This document shows positions 15,855-35,045 of a DNA stretch of 48,467 nt, one piece after another (the first letter of the stretch is position 1; every line of letters begins with the position of its first letter). Source of the DNA: Candidatus Sericytochromatia bacterium (GTDB lineage: Bacteria; Cyanobacteriota; Sericytochromatia; S15B-MN24; UBA4093); NCBI GenBank assembly GCA_036676985.1, contig JAKFBU010000063.1:1-48467 (forward strand), read 5' to 3'. Below the pieces are notes generated by a model. It saw only the letters and a program-made list of their open reading frames with translations, made no database searches and was not told the DNA's origin. The position numbers and the translations under genes were made by a program.

Positions 15855-15924
15855 ACGATGCGCAGATTTCGCAGATGACGCAGATTAGGGACGGATGCCC
15901 CAAGCTGTGAAATCTGCGGATCGT
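15855..15924. repeat. CGCAGAT-type palindromic repeat, copy 1
   Basis: ACGATGCGCAGATTTCGCAG pairs with CTGTGAAATCTGCGGATCGT; homologous to 33496-33548. Confidence 0.8.
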
Positions 15925-17504
15925 CAATTGGCGCCGAGATTCCGGAGGACGCTTTCGACGAGGGGCATGGGGACATCCGAGCGGATGACGACCTTGCCGA
16001 TGGCCTCCGGCAGCACGAAGCGCAGTTGACCGTCCTGGACCTTCTTGTCGTGTCCCATGGCCTCGACGAGGCCCCGGATGGGGAGGCCCTGGATGCCAAC
16101 AGGAAGGCCGGCGGCCTTGAGCCAGGTGACGAGGCGCTCGTGCTCGCCCTGGGACCACATGCCGAGCTCGAGGGCGATCGCCCCCGCCGCCACCATGCCG
16201 ATGGCCACCGCCTCGCCGTGGAGGTAGGTGCGGTAGTGGGTGACGGCTTCGATGGCATGGCCCACGGTGTGGCCGAAGTTGAGGATGGCCCGGAGGCCTC
16301 CCTCGCGCTCGTCGGCCACGACCACCTGGGCCTTGAGCTCGCAGGAGCGGGCGATGGCAGGCACCAGGGCCTCCAGCGTCCGGTCCAGGATGAGCCCGAG
16401 CTCCTGTTCCAGCCGCTCGAAGAGGGCCGCGTCCAGGATGACGCCGTACTTCACCAGCTCCGCGAGGCCGCCCCGGAACTCGCGCACGGGCAGGCTGTGC
16501 AGGGTGAGGGGATCCGCCACCACCAGGGACGGCTGGTGGAAGGCCCCGATGAGGTTCTTGCCGCGCGGATGGTTGACGGCCACCTTGCCGCCCACCGAGG
16601 AGTCGATCTGGGCGAGCAGGGTGGTCGGCACCTGGACGAAGGGCACGCCCCGCTGGTAGGTCGCCGCCACGAAGCCCGCGAGGTCCCCGACCACGCCGCC
16701 CCCGAGGGCCACCACCGGATGCCGCCGCTCCAGGCGCATGTCGATGGCCTGATCGTAGAGGCGCTCGGCCTCCTTCAGGCTCTTGGCGCCCTCCGAGTCG
16801 GGCACCACCGCGAACTGCGGCCGCCAGCCGGCGACCTCGAGGGCCGCCTTCGCACTCTCCCCGTAGAGCTTCTGGACCGTGGGGTTGGTGACGACGAGGC
16901 AGGGGCCCGGCTTGAGGACCCGGGCCATCTCGGTGCCGAGCGAGGCCAGGGCGTTGGGCGCGACGACGATGGGATAGGAGCGATCGCCGAGCTCCACGGG
17001 CACGCGCGCCTCGGTTCCGAAGCAGCGCGAGAGGATGGCGTCCGCCGTGAGGCCGGGCGAGCCGCGGCCCGTCGAGATGCGGATGGGAAAGGCCGCGTAG
17101 TAGGCCTCGCGGTCCCGGTAGCGGCGCAGGAAGCTCTCCCGGTCGGTGGCCAGGGGGCGATCGCTGCCCTCGACCCGGCGCCAGAGCTGCTCGGGCGGCG
17201 CATGCAGCACGACCACCATGCCGGATCGGCGCATGCCCGCCACGTTCTCGGGGTCGAGCACCGCCCCGCCGCCCGGGGCGATGACCTGCTGCGTGCCCGC
17301 GAGGATCCGGGCGAGGGCGGCCTTCTCACGGCTACGGAAGCCGAACTCGCCCTCGGTGTCGAAGAGCTCGGGGATGCTGCGGCCCGCCTCCTCGGCGATG
17401 ACGACGTCCACGTCCACGAAGCTCCAGCCGAGCCTGTCGGCCACGATGCGGCCCACCGTCGACTTGCCGGCGCCCATGAAGCCTAGGAGGATGAGATTCT
17501 GCAT
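15924..17504 (-). CDS. aroKB: Bifunctional shikimate kinase / 3-dehydroquinate synthase (AroK-AroB fusion)
   Basis: GFMGAGKS, GEFGFRSRE and GGG in the N-half; ALGGGVVGDLAGF, PTTLLAQIDSSVGGK, LNFGHTVGHAIE and HGEAV in the C-half. Confidence 0.95.
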   Translation of the reverse strand: MQNLILLGFMGAGKSTVGRIVADRLGWSFVDVDVVIAEEAGRSIPELFDTEGEFGFRSREKAALARILAGTQQVIAPGGGAVLDPENVAGMRRSGMVVVLHAPPEQLWRRVEGSDRPLATDRESFLRRYRDREAYYAAFPIRISTGRGSPGLTADAILSRCFGTEARVPVELGDRSYPIVVAPNALASLGTEMARVLKPGPCLVVTNPTVQKLYGESAKAALEVAGWRPQFAVVPDSEGAKSLKEAERLYDQAIDMRLERRHPVVALGGGVVGDLAGFVAATYQRGVPFVQVPTTLLAQIDSSVGGKVAVNHPRGKNLIGAFHQPSLVVADPLTLHSLPVREFRGGLAELVKYGVILDAALFERLEQELGLILDRTLEALVPAIARSCELKAQVVVADEREGGLRAILNFGHTVGHAIEAVTHYRTYLHGEAVAIGMVAAGAIALELGMWSQGEHERLVTWLKAAGLPVGIQGLPIRGLVEAMGHDKKVQDGQLRFVLPEAIGKVVIRSDVPMPLVESVLRNLGAN

Positions 17505-32002: not shown

Positions 32003-32175
32003 TGGCTCGACGCAGGCGTTACAACGGCGTGACGCCCCCGGCTTCAACGAGGAGGTAGCCGCCAAGCGAAATCGAACGGATCCGCCCCTTGGATCGTTCG
32101 TTCACGCGGGTCAACGACCCGCCCTCCCCGTGCAACCGCCCCCTGTCGGGTACCCCCGAATATATAGGACGTTCA

Positions 32176-33441
32176 ATGATGATCGCGACTGAACCCAAGC
32201 ACACGTCGCCGCTGACCTCCGCGCGTCAGCAGCTCGCCAAGTGCATCGACATCCTCGCCATCGACCCCGGCCTGCACGAGCGCCTCGCCTATCCGGATCG
32301 CGTCGTCCAGACCAACAGCCCCGTTCGCATGGACGACGGCTCCATCAAGATGTTCTCGGGCTACCGCGTCCAGCACAACAACGCGCTTGGCCCCTACAAG
32401 GGCGGTCTGCGCTTCCACCCCTCGGTCGACATCGACGAGGTGACGGCGCTGGCCATGCTCATGACCTGGAAGTGCTCGCTGGTCGGCCTGCCCTACGGCG
32501 GCGCCAAGGGCGGCATCACGGTCGATCCCAAGAAGCTCTCCCTGGCCGAGCTCGAGCGTCTGACCCGCCGCTTCGCGGCCGACATGGTGCTCGTCTTCGA
32601 TCCGCACAAGGACATCCCCGCGCCGGACGTGAACACCAGCCCGCGCGAGATGGCCTGGATCATGGACACCTGGAGCGTCAACAAGGGCTACGCCGCCCCC
32701 GGCGTCGTCACGGGTAAGCCCATCGCCATCGGCGGCTCCCTGGGCCGCTTCGAGGCGACCGGTCGCGGCGTCATCACCATCACCGAGGAGCTCTTGACCT
32801 TCAAGGGCCGCAAGATGGCCGGCACCACCATGGCCGTGCAGGGCTTCGGCAACGTCGGCTCCATCGCCGCCATGCTCGGCGCTCAGAAGGGCGCCAAGAT
32901 CCTCGCGGTCTCGGACGTCACCGGCGGCTACTACAACGAGGCCGGTCTCGACATCCCGGCGATGATTCGCTACGTCCAGGCCAACGGCAACCTCGGCGGC
33001 TACCCGGACGCGCAGCCCATCAGCAATGACGACCTCCTGCTCCTGCCGGTGGACGTGCTCATCCCCGCCGCGCTCGAGGCCGTCATCACCGAGAAGAACG
33101 CGGACAAGGTCCAGGCCGAGTTCATCATCGAGGCCGCCAACGGCCCCATCACCCCCGCGGCAGATGCCATCCTCGAGAAGAAGGGCATCACGGTCGTTCC
33201 CGACATCCTCGCCAATGCGGGCGGCGTCGTCGTCAGCTACTTCGAGTGGGTCCAGGGCATGAACATGCTCTTCTGGACCGAGGACGAGGTCAACGAGCGC
33301 CTCAACCGGATCATGGTCCGCTCCTTCTCGCAGGTCTCGAACCTCGTGACCACCCGCGAGCTGACCTTCCGGATGGCCGCCTACTCCATCGGCGTGGGCC
33401 GCGTCGCCGAAGCCCACAAGCTGCGGGGCCTCTTCCCCTAA
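32176..33441 (+). CDS. gdhA: Glutamate dehydrogenase (Glu/Leu/Phe/Val family)
   Basis: GPYKGGLRFHP, MTWK, PYGGAKGG, DIPAPDV, VTGKP, QGFGNVG, PDILANAGGV. Confidence 0.95.
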   Translation: MMIATEPKHTSPLTSARQQLAKCIDILAIDPGLHERLAYPDRVVQTNSPVRMDDGSIKMFSGYRVQHNNALGPYKGGLRFHPSVDIDEVTALAMLMTWKCSLVGLPYGGAKGGITVDPKKLSLAELERLTRRFAADMVLVFDPHKDIPAPDVNTSPREMAWIMDTWSVNKGYAAPGVVTGKPIAIGGSLGRFEATGRGVITITEELLTFKGRKMAGTTMAVQGFGNVGSIAAMLGAQKGAKILAVSDVTGGYYNEAGLDIPAMIRYVQANGNLGGYPDAQPISNDDLLLLPVDVLIPAALEAVITEKNADKVQAEFIIEAANGPITPAADAILEKKGITVVPDILANAGGVVVSYFEWVQGMNMLFWTEDEVNERLNRIMVRSFSQVSNLVTTRELTFRMAAYSIGVGRVAEAHKLRGLFP

Positions 33442-33462
33442 GCTGCGGATACGCACGACTCG

Positions 33463-33495
33463 AGCCGCCCGGGGAAGTCCCCGGGCGGCTTTTTT
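33463..33495 (+). terminator. Intrinsic terminator of gdhA
   Basis: AGCCGCCCGGGG / CCCCGGGCGGCT followed by TTTTT. Confidence 0.88.
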
Positions 33496-33548
33496 GGACG
33501 ATCCGCAGATTTCGCAGATTTGTCATCTGCGAAATCTGCGGATCGTCC
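33496..33548. repeat. CGCAGAT-type palindromic repeat, copy 2
   Basis: Perfect 24-bp inverted repeat GGACGATCCGCAGATTTCGCAGAT-ttgtc-ATCTGCGAAATCTGCGGATCGTCC. Confidence 0.85.
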
Positions 33549-33563
33549 ACCCCATAGGGGGAG

Positions 33564-33595
33564 AAAAAAACGAAGGGGCCCGCTCCGCGGACCCC
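33564..33595 (-). terminator. Intrinsic terminator
   Basis: GGGGTCCGC-GGA-GCGGGCCCC followed by TTCGTTTTTTT on the minus strand. Confidence 0.8.
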
Positions 33596-33613
33596 ACAGT
33601 GGGACGACACCAG

Positions 33614-33646
33614 CTAGAAGAACCCGGTCACATAGAGTTGAGGCAT
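33614..33646 (-). CDS. Candidate 10-aa peptide MPQLYVTGFF
   Basis: TAAGGAGGTGGACCCA immediately before ATG; TAG followed by a terminator. Confidence 0.5.
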   Translation of the reverse strand: MPQLYVTGFF

Positions 33647-33998
33647 TGGGTCCACCTCCTTACTCGCGACTTAGCCCTCGGTGAGTCCGTGCCACTCGTG
33701 CCCGTGCCGTCACGCGGCGTGGGGAGGGTTCCCCGTCTGGTGGGCATCGCCGGTTGGCTAGGCGACTCTGAGTCGCGGGGCTCCCCTCGTCCGGGCCACT
33801 CGACAGGCCACCCTTGGGACGTGGGGCGCGTTCCGCGCTCCCGATGTCCTTACAATAGCCCCTCCGTGTGAAGGAACAAGCAAGAAATTGTTGTCAATGG
33901 ATAAGATCACCAATAAAGCTTGCTTTTCTCTCGGAGGGCCCTTTCCTGTACAATGGCAGGGTTGCGCCCACCGTATGAGGCCTTAGAGGACGGATTCC

Positions 33999-35045
33999 GT
34001 GAAGACCATCCACTGGAACGACGGCGTCGTCGAACTGCTCGACCAGACGCGCCTGCCCCACGTGACCGAGACCGTGACCTGTCGGACCTATCAGGACATC
34101 GGTCGCGCCATCACCACCATGCAGGTGCGCGGCGCCCCCGCCATCGGCGTGGCGGCCGCCATGGGCCTGGCCCTCGCCGCCCAGGCGAGCACGGCCGCCG
34201 AGACCGCGCAGCTGATCGCCGAGCTCAAGGTCGCCGCCGACGAGCTGCGCGCGACGCGTCCCACGGCCGTCAACCTGGCATGGGCGCTGCAGCGCATGCT
34301 GACGGTCGCCGAGGAGAAGGCCCACATCGGCGCCGACGACCTCAAGCGCTACCTCGTACTCGAGGCCCAGGTCATCGCCCGCGAGGACGTCGAGATCAAC
34401 CAGGCCATCGGCCGCCACGGCGCCGCCCTCATCCAGGACGGCATGAACATCCTGACGCACTGCTCCACCGGTGCCTTGGCCACCGTCGACTACGGCACGG
34501 CGCTCGGCGTCATCCGCACGGCCCACGAGCAGGGCAAGAAGATCCACGTCTGGGTGGACGAAACGCGGCCCCGGCTGCAAGGTGCTCGTCTCAACGCCTG
34601 GGAGCTCAAACAGCTGGGCATCCCCTTCACGCTCATCTCGGACAACATGGCCGCCCACTTCATGCAGCGTGGCCAGGTGGACCTCGTCATCACCGGCGCG
34701 GACCGCATCGCCGCCAACGGCGACACCGCCAACAAGATCGGCACCTACGGCCTCTCGGTCCTGGCCCATGCCCACGGCATCCCCTTCTACATCGCGGCCC
34801 CGCTCTCGACGGTGGACCCCGAGATGCCCACCGGGGACCTCATCCCCATCGAGGACCGGGATCCGCGCGAGGTGACCGAGATCGACGGCCACCGGGTGGC
34901 CCCGGCCGAGGTGATGGTCGCCAACCCCTGCTTTGACGTGACGCCCGCCAAGTACATCCACGGCATCGTCACCGAGCGCGGCGTGCTGCGGGCCCCCTTC
35001 GACAAGGCCATCGACCAGGTGGTCGGGATCTTCCAGCGCGCCTAA
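33999..35045 (+). CDS. mtnA: S-methyl-5-thioribose-1-phosphate isomerase
   Basis: LLDQTRLP, VRGAPAIG, RPTAVNL, LTHC, DETRPRLQG, GADRIAANGDTANKIGTY, FDVTP. Confidence 0.96.
   Translation: MKTIHWNDGVVELLDQTRLPHVTETVTCRTYQDIGRAITTMQVRGAPAIGVAAAMGLALAAQASTAAETAQLIAELKVAADELRATRPTAVNLAWALQRMLTVAEEKAHIGADDLKRYLVLEAQVIAREDVEINQAIGRHGAALIQDGMNILTHCSTGALATVDYGTALGVIRTAHEQGKKIHVWVDETRPRLQGARLNAWELKQLGIPFTLISDNMAAHFMQRGQVDLVITGADRIAANGDTANKIGTYGLSVLAHAHGIPFYIAAPLSTVDPEMPTGDLIPIEDRDPREVTEIDGHRVAPAEVMVANPCFDVTPAKYIHGIVTERGVLRAPFDKAIDQVVGIFQRA

Follow-up and report, generated by a model that had tools for sequence, protein, structure and literature searches.

In the window, a 48,467-nt stretch of DNA from a Candidatus Sericytochromatia bacterium, the 557-base spacer separating a gdhA-like from an mtnA-like gene carries a minus-strand unit of about 280 nt (approximately 33845 to 33565), in which a 171-nt fold is followed by the Shine-Dalgarno sequence GGAGG, an open reading frame (ORF) of 10 codons, and an intrinsic terminator. 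The unit is very probably a real, selected, structured RNA gene. We lean toward reading it as a stand-alone dual-function RNA, restricted to its lineage, in which a new structured RNA is joined to a micropeptide gene. A first-pass annotation, made from the letters alone, had proposed a stand-alone structured and peptide-coding RNA or a new class of noncoding RNA. All of the elements that it listed are present on the minus strand where it had placed them, and the proposal is supported by the conservation of the fold, the maintenance of the ORF, and the confinement of RNA-library contigs to the unit. Its further suggestion of a ribosome-sequestering RNA gained no specific support.

The unit is single copy in the window's genome (G000). 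The gdhA-like gene is convergent with it and the mtnA-like gene divergent from it, and the unit therefore has no same-strand downstream gene (Table 1). The RNA would begin at 33845 with AUCGGGAG, a start that we infer from a -10-like hexamer lying 6 nt upstream of this conserved 5' end in all five homologous sequences, and about 170 nt of G+C-rich sequence come next. A strict sigma-70 consensus scan gave no promoter at the unit, so that the hexamer is assigned by its position and conservation only. Further upstream, the unit shares a block at 33871 to 33900 with the promoter region of the divergent mtnA, and this block might serve as an operator or contain a -35 region. It is not kept in genus g3, whose promoter region has a direct repeat of GTTTAACAT in its place. 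The two copies of GTTTAACAT are 16 nt apart and end 6 nt before the RNA start (L013:2575-2605, with the same placement in L016 and L014), and the g3 promoter region is unlike that of g1. Over the wider region 33850-33965, shared with the divergent mtnA, conservation between the window and its sister species exceeds that of the RNA itself. The TTGACA lies in this region, as does the imperfect inverted repeat, ACAACAA...TTGCTTGTT, and the two genes may have an operator in common here.

At the other end of the unit, a G+C-rich hairpin and a T run occupy the place of the terminator in all homologs, and the terminator looks constitutive and would make the 3' end of the RNA. Just before it, a hairpin over codons 7 and 8 that encloses the stop codon seems, read by eye, to recur among the homologs, with ACCGGA/UCCGGU in G009, ACGGG/CUCCGU in G003, and one compensatory change (C-G to G-C). 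Between the terminators of the unit and of gdhA lies a perfect 25-bp palindrome (33497-33549), which is absent at the corresponding place in the sister species. It belongs to a dispersed repeat family, parts of it recurring elsewhere in the genome at no fewer than seven sites or contigs (e.g., C26, C73, C66, C25, C7, and window positions 15855-15925), and it looks like a REP-type extragenic palindrome.

Table 1. Features of the unit and its surroundings, in window coordinates; g1 and g3 are the two genera that carry the unit, and G001 is the sister species of the window's genome
Feature	Position	Strand	Remarks
gdhA-like gene (Glu/Leu/Phe/Val dehydrogenase)	32089-33441	plus	converges on the unit
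mtnA-like gene (IF-2B/MtnA family)	33999-35045	plus	diverges from the unit
Upstream block	33871..33900	minus	TTGACA at 33897-33892 and imperfect inverted repeat; near-invariant between window and G001
-10-like hexamer TATTGT (putative)	33852..33857	minus	TATTCT in G001, TAACAT in g3
5' domain, 171 nt, predicted three-way junction	33675..33845	minus	full-length match of model R2
P0 (CGG/CCG), closes the junction	33844-33841 with 33681-33678	minus	window MFE fold
P1	33840-33833 with 33778-33770	minus	window MFE fold
P2a	33826-33817 with 33792-33783	minus	window MFE fold
P2b	33809-33794	minus	conserved 8-nt loop UGUNGAGU at 33805-33798
P3, long stem	33768-33742 with 33703-33683	minus	window MFE fold
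P4	33734-33721	minus	window MFE fold
P5	33718-33706	minus	window MFE fold
Variable linker, fold to Shine-Dalgarno sequence	33660..33674	minus	differs between window and G001; unalignable with g3
Shine-Dalgarno core GGAGG	33655..33659	minus	8 nt before ATG; GGAGG in g1, GGAG in g3, spacing 7-8 nt
ORF ATG...TAG, MPQLYVTGFF	33614..33646	minus	ATG at 33646, TAG at 33616-33614
Stop-codon hairpin (putative)	33609..33628	minus	ACCGG (33628-33624, codons 7-8) with CUGGU (33613-33609); encloses the stop; read by eye
Intrinsic terminator	33564..33595	minus	9-bp stem 33595-33575 with 8 G-C pairs, 3-nt loop, T run to 33564
RNA-library contigs	33640-33834; 33603-33834; 33565-33830; 33623-33805		no loose ends listed there

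A BLAST-level DNA search of about 60 relatives gave the sister species G001 as the sole match (82% identity); the two genomes make up genus g1. A profile was then made from the two g1 sequences and run against the mtnA neighborhood of each of the 10 family genomes, which revealed diverged copies in three genomes of genus g3, G003 and G009 among them, with E values of 4.9e-4, 1.9e-3, and 0.04. All five homologous units are located between mtnA and gdhA. In genus g4, these two genes stand about 100 nt apart without the unit, and genus g2 has other neighbors. An ORF-based pattern with one mismatch allowed picked out 5 of the 27 genomes of the order, and these were the same five; the same five were also the only ones accepted with the covariance model R2, both among 47 genomes representing the class and among 151 sampled from the phylum. 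There were three weak R2 matches at the class level (E of 0.1 to 0.7), those in G010 and G008 being rejected as coding sequence and the third, a partial match of 37 nt in G005, not being accepted. A looser ORF pattern gave no match in the five g2 and g4 genomes. Domain and ORF thus co-occur in 5 of the 10 family genomes, while the other 5 gave neither an accepted domain match nor the ORF.

Scanning a species-representative genome collection with the peptide pattern returned G001 and two chance matches (L004:2001-2027 and L005:2001-2027), in which MPQIYVTGF lies inside long ORFs of two homologous CPR proteins (Parcubacteria, Paceibacterota) and which we took to be unrelated. The corresponding scan of JGI metagenomes returned two contigs 1 nt off G003 and one chance match in low-GC DNA. 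In this sampling, the unit is confined to two genera of one family; the sampling is thin, with five genomic sequences that amount to about two independent lineages. The window's genome, rated 100% complete, gave no match to PsaA or PsaB.

The best supported feature of the unit is the fold of its 5' domain, which is conserved across the two genera with compensatory changes. In the predicted structure, two arms extend from a three-way junction closed by P0. The first is a long hairpin (P1-P2a-P2b) with the conserved 8-nt loop UGUAGAGU (UGUCGAGU in the window) at its tip, and the second is the long irregular stem P3 ending in the hairpins P4 and P5. A covariance model built from genus g3 only (R1; 168 positions, 54 pairs) recovered the g1 relative G001 over its full length with an E value of 1.4e-5. 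A second model, R2, trained on g3 and G001 with the window excluded, recovered the 171 nt of the window in full at 44.7 bits (E of 6.4e-8), a match that is not independent of the R1 result because G001, which is in the training set, is a close relative, about 88% identical to the window. In the alignment of the five sequences, 93.7% of the pair cells are standard, compared with 32.7 to 41.6% when the partners are slid by 1 to 3 columns. Changes on both sides were found in 22 of the 54 pairs, a number matched by 0 of 500 column shuffles; the alignment was fitted to the model, which biases the count in favor of the structure, and most of the compensatory changes trace to the single split between g1 and g3. 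The two genera differ at 46 to 50 of the 108 paired positions and at 44 to 51 of the 69 to 70 unpaired ones.

As an alignment-free check, each sequence was folded on its own. All five minimum free energy (MFE) folds share the shape [[][[][]]], which occurs in only 7 to 11 of 300 dinucleotide shuffles per sequence, and their helices fall at matching places across the homologs. MFE stability itself was not above that of the shuffles, with z at -0.85 when the complete unit was folded and between -1.44 and +0.8 when the 5' domain was. The helices of the first-pass annotation fared differently. Its inner pairings GAGTC/GACTC, GCCA/TGGC, TGCCC/GGGCA, GGGGA/TCCCC, and GCCG/CGGC are kept or covary, and they correspond to P3, P4, and P5. 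Its closing helix, CGCGACT/AGTCGCG, is broken in G001 and also by a G>T change at 33666 in three of the RNA-library contigs, and its 5' hairpin GCGCG-GAA-CGCGC has no counterpart in g3, the bases of that hairpin forming P1 with 33778-33770 instead. P0 and P1 take the place of both. Two further contacts are conceivable from the sequences: the P2 loop (AGUG) might form a kissing contact with a conserved CCCACU block, and the 5' GGGA might pair with UCCC before the terminator.

The 171-nt domain matches no known Rfam family. With Rfam 15, where membership was taken as a covariance-model match at or near the gathering score, the scan of the whole window at gathering scores gave two tRNAs elsewhere and nothing on the unit. 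A permissive E-value scan of 33400-34050 gave 25 weak matches, none near its cutoff and most of them on the downstream palindrome and the terminators. Two of them fell within the domain, namely, Guanidine-III on the strand of the element (16.4 bits against a cutoff of 36; E of 0.63) and, on the other strand, the frameshift-element model ovine_lenti_FSE (21.6 bits, cutoff 45); CC2171 matched across the ORF and the terminators (22.1 against 75 bits). In the homologs L002, L013, and L014, no Rfam model matched the 5' domain at an E value of 5 or lower. ARAGORN found neither a tRNA nor a tmRNA in 33300-34100, and a tmRNA identity was rejected on this result. The unit resembles 6S RNA (RF00013), a family named in the first-pass annotation, in its size, in being a stand-alone gene, and in its apparent presence in RNA libraries, but 6S RNA is a rod with a central bubble whereas the fold of the unit is a branched three-way junction. 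A canonical 6S RNA is encoded on another contig of the same genome (G000:C19:85569-85751, 62.3 bits), and a 6S identity was likewise rejected.

Downstream of the fold, the ORF encodes MPQLYVTGFF in the window, MPQIYVTGFI in G001, and MPRIEITGFT in the three g3 genomes, so that the motif MP-x-(L/I)-x-(V/I)-TGF-x is found in all five. The ATG, the TAG, the length of 10 codons, and residues P2, T7, G8, and F9 are invariant, and the Shine-Dalgarno spacing stays at 7 to 8 nt. The Thr and Gly codons vary at the third position only, and positions 4 and 6 show the conservative swaps L/I and V/I. The linker before the ORF and the region after the stop are unalignable between the genera, with different lengths and many indels. 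Within the genera, 4 of 6 changes are synonymous, for which the chance fraction is 0.235 (P of about 0.03); this result weakens over all lineages, where about 6 of 13 changes are synonymous (P of 0.06). Variable sites fall 4/2/5 on the three codon positions. Some degenerate bases, such as those of the Pro codon CCU, are invariant, and constraint at the RNA level is therefore suggested as well. This coding evidence is modest, suggestive but not conclusive, and it points to an ORF that is probably translated and selected as a peptide. Literature searches with the three peptide strings, the RNA itself being nameless, did not find them. The first-pass annotation had also remarked on a nearly full complement to the 16S 3' end upstream of the ORF. 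The long match is present in the window, but only GGAGG(T) is conserved, and only GGAG in g3; the window's genome has no 16S rRNA assembled, so its own anti-Shine-Dalgarno 3' end could not be read.

Parts of the stretch are found in 13 public sequencing runs, seven of them recorded as RNA. We examined four metatranscriptome runs from three studies (labeled rhizosphere and mine drainage), and each holds one short contig of 183 to 266 nt lying wholly inside 33565-33834; one of these ends at 33565, in the terminator. The flanks 33311-33532 and 33866-34087 are uncovered in the four runs, an absence of cover that proves nothing, and the small pieces over gdhA and mtnA in the same runs have loose ends or many differences. 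As the contigs show neither strand, ends, nor abundance, they are a hint of a discrete RNA and not proof of one. They are sequence variants of the window, differing from it at 15 places in all. Six of these places are in the linker (four) or in the spacer from the Shine-Dalgarno sequence to the ATG, five are in the loops of P4 and P5 or in a junction, one is at an internal A-A mismatch, and one is in P1, with the partner base outside the contigs. The remaining two are in the ORF, CAA>CAG and TAT>TAC, both synonymous and both with the states seen in G001. None of the 15 breaks P0, P2, P3, P4, or P5, and none alters the peptide.

As the main alternative, the unit could be a purely noncoding small RNA with no functional peptide. 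Its Shine-Dalgarno-like site and 33-nt frame would then be kept for what they do as RNA, for example, as a seed for base pairing, as a site bound by ribosomes or a protein, or as part of the 3' hairpins. Such an RNA would fit with the fold being the best supported feature, with the invariance of several four-fold degenerate positions of the ORF, with variable sites that are not strongly periodic, and with third-position changes in codon 7 that, read by eye, are matched in the downstream pairing partner. We nevertheless hold it to be doubtful, since the start, stop, length, and ribosome binding site spacing of the ORF are kept between flanks that cannot be aligned, its replacements are conservative, and its changes are largely synonymous within the genera and entirely so in the RNA libraries.

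A small ORF directly before hairpins and a terminator also has the look of a ribosome-dependent attenuator or leader, which here would regulate gdhA by reading through antisense into it or would be the remnant of a leader whose downstream gene was lost. In both genera the neighbor of the unit on that side is the gdhA 3' end, and a small hairpin CCCA/UGGG of the window, noted by eye, overlaps the 5' arm of the terminator. The genomic setting argues against this: in all five genomes gdhA is convergent with the unit, as the first-pass annotation had observed for the window, and a same-strand downstream gene is present in none. The ORF moreover has no run of regulatory codons, the hairpins after the stop are not kept between genera, and no conserved antiterminator/terminator alternative was found in them; the gdhA terminator, and in the window the 25-bp palindrome, stand between the unit and gdhA; genus g4 has adjacent mtnA and gdhA with no unit; and a conserved upstream fold of 170 nt is foreign to classical attenuators. 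Attenuation is thus quite improbable. We give practically no credence to a protein-coding gene on the opposite strand, although an open frame of 125 aa (33494-33871, plus strand) crosses the whole unit and G001 and G003 have similar ones of 117 and 124 aa, respectively. Over 83 aa, the predicted proteins of the two g1 genomes share only 42% identity, although their DNA is about 88% identical. Indels of 1 and 2 nt interrupt the frame in the DNA alignment, and the longest antisense frame across the unit in G009 has 53 aa. At a G+C content of about 70%, long frames are expected to arise spuriously; the 125-aa frame is spurious, not being conserved as protein, and is a likely false call in automatic annotation.

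Our preferred reading remains an independent small gene, whose RNA product, about 280 nt long, would have two selected parts. One would be the 171-nt domain of a new family, a three-way junction closed by P0. The other, about 15 nt downstream of the domain, would comprise the Shine-Dalgarno sequence and the 10-codon ORF, followed by the stop-codon hairpin and the constitutive terminator, and translation of the ORF would yield the micropeptide. The folded domain might sense a signal and tune the translation of the ORF in the manner of a riboswitch, or it might bind a protein or another RNA on its own. The most likely mode is a dual-function RNA or a structured micro-mRNA; a functional link between the domain and the ORF is something we infer from their arrangement. 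That the domain directly gates translation of the ORF is a tentative idea that we would rather doubt, and it is unlikely that the domain is a new riboswitch-like sensor class with a 10-residue peptide, acting as a regulator or signal, as its sole output. A covarying aptamer-like fold (22 of 54 pairs, as counted on the model-fitted alignment) does end about 15 nt before the GGAGG. The 3' tails of the homologs each fold differently, with probabilities between 0.16 and 0.75 that the Shine-Dalgarno sequence is unpaired, and no conserved switch between domain and Shine-Dalgarno sequence, nor an antiterminator, was found among them; the alternative pairing CGCGACT/AGTCGCG occurs in the window only. 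As analyzed here, the unit shows only the structural half of what defines a riboswitch.

Riboswitches ahead of small ORFs are known, for example, the Downstream-peptide/glutamine-II motif. The unit resembles such elements in having a covarying fold whose terminal helix lies directly upstream of a ribosome binding site, and in having a terminator that ends the transcript. It differs from them in matching no Rfam model, in that no conserved alternative pairing of the Shine-Dalgarno sequence was found among its homologs, and in being present in two genera only. Riboswitch RNAs that act in trans, such as SreA and SreB, have also been described (PMC12612679).

The closest known kind is the dual-function small RNA (PMC12612679, PMC12310071), represented by SR1/SR1P, SgrS/SgrT, RNAIII/hld, and VcdRP (PMC12612679, PMC12310071; for SR1, PMC3526287). 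Like the unit, these are small stand-alone transcripts that end at a terminator and combine a conserved RNA structure with a short, likewise conserved ORF preceded by a Shine-Dalgarno sequence of its own. The unit would likewise have its own transcription unit, with a -10-like hexamer, a terminator, neighbors on the other strand, and contigs confined to it, the start and strand of the RNA being putative, and its ORF is conserved at the amino acid level in all five genomes. Published sizes for the peptides of dual-function small RNAs are 29 aa in the case of VcdP and, as a general figure, "usually less than 50 aa" (PMC12310071, PMC3526287). The ORF of the unit has 10 codons, and the structured part upstream of it is a 171-nt three-way-junction domain in place of a short seed. 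The unit is related to these RNAs neither in sequence nor through Rfam.

Nearest in ORF size is rnTrpL/peTrpL from Sinorhizobium meliloti, where the attenuator RNA of trp doubles as a small RNA and its 14-aa leader peptide acts in trans (PMC7968998, PMC7298713, PMC12612679). There, too, a very short ORF (14 aa, compared with 10 aa here) is followed by a terminator on a small RNA, and the RNA and the peptide have functions of their own. In rnTrpL, however, Trp codons and the trpE(G) downstream make for genuine attenuation, whereas the unit has neither regulatory codons nor a downstream gene and has a large 5' domain in addition.

The distribution over two genera limits the general reach of the finding, and the neighboring genes give no clue to function. 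The unit is nevertheless of real interest to specialists in RNA and in small proteins. If our reading is true, a lineage for which metagenome-assembled genomes are the sole source would contribute a new family of structured RNA, and bacterial ORFs that are conserved and expressed independently would extend down to a size of 10 codons. To our knowledge, gene callers never report ORFs of this length. A complex fold and a micro-ORF on one transcript would make a compact test case for the cooperation of RNA structure and micropeptide. Alternatively, the unit could show a riboswitch-like domain controlling a peptide rather than an enzyme or transporter; if the sensor reading were true, the ORF would be among the smallest conserved chromosomal genes known and would be under direct RNA control.
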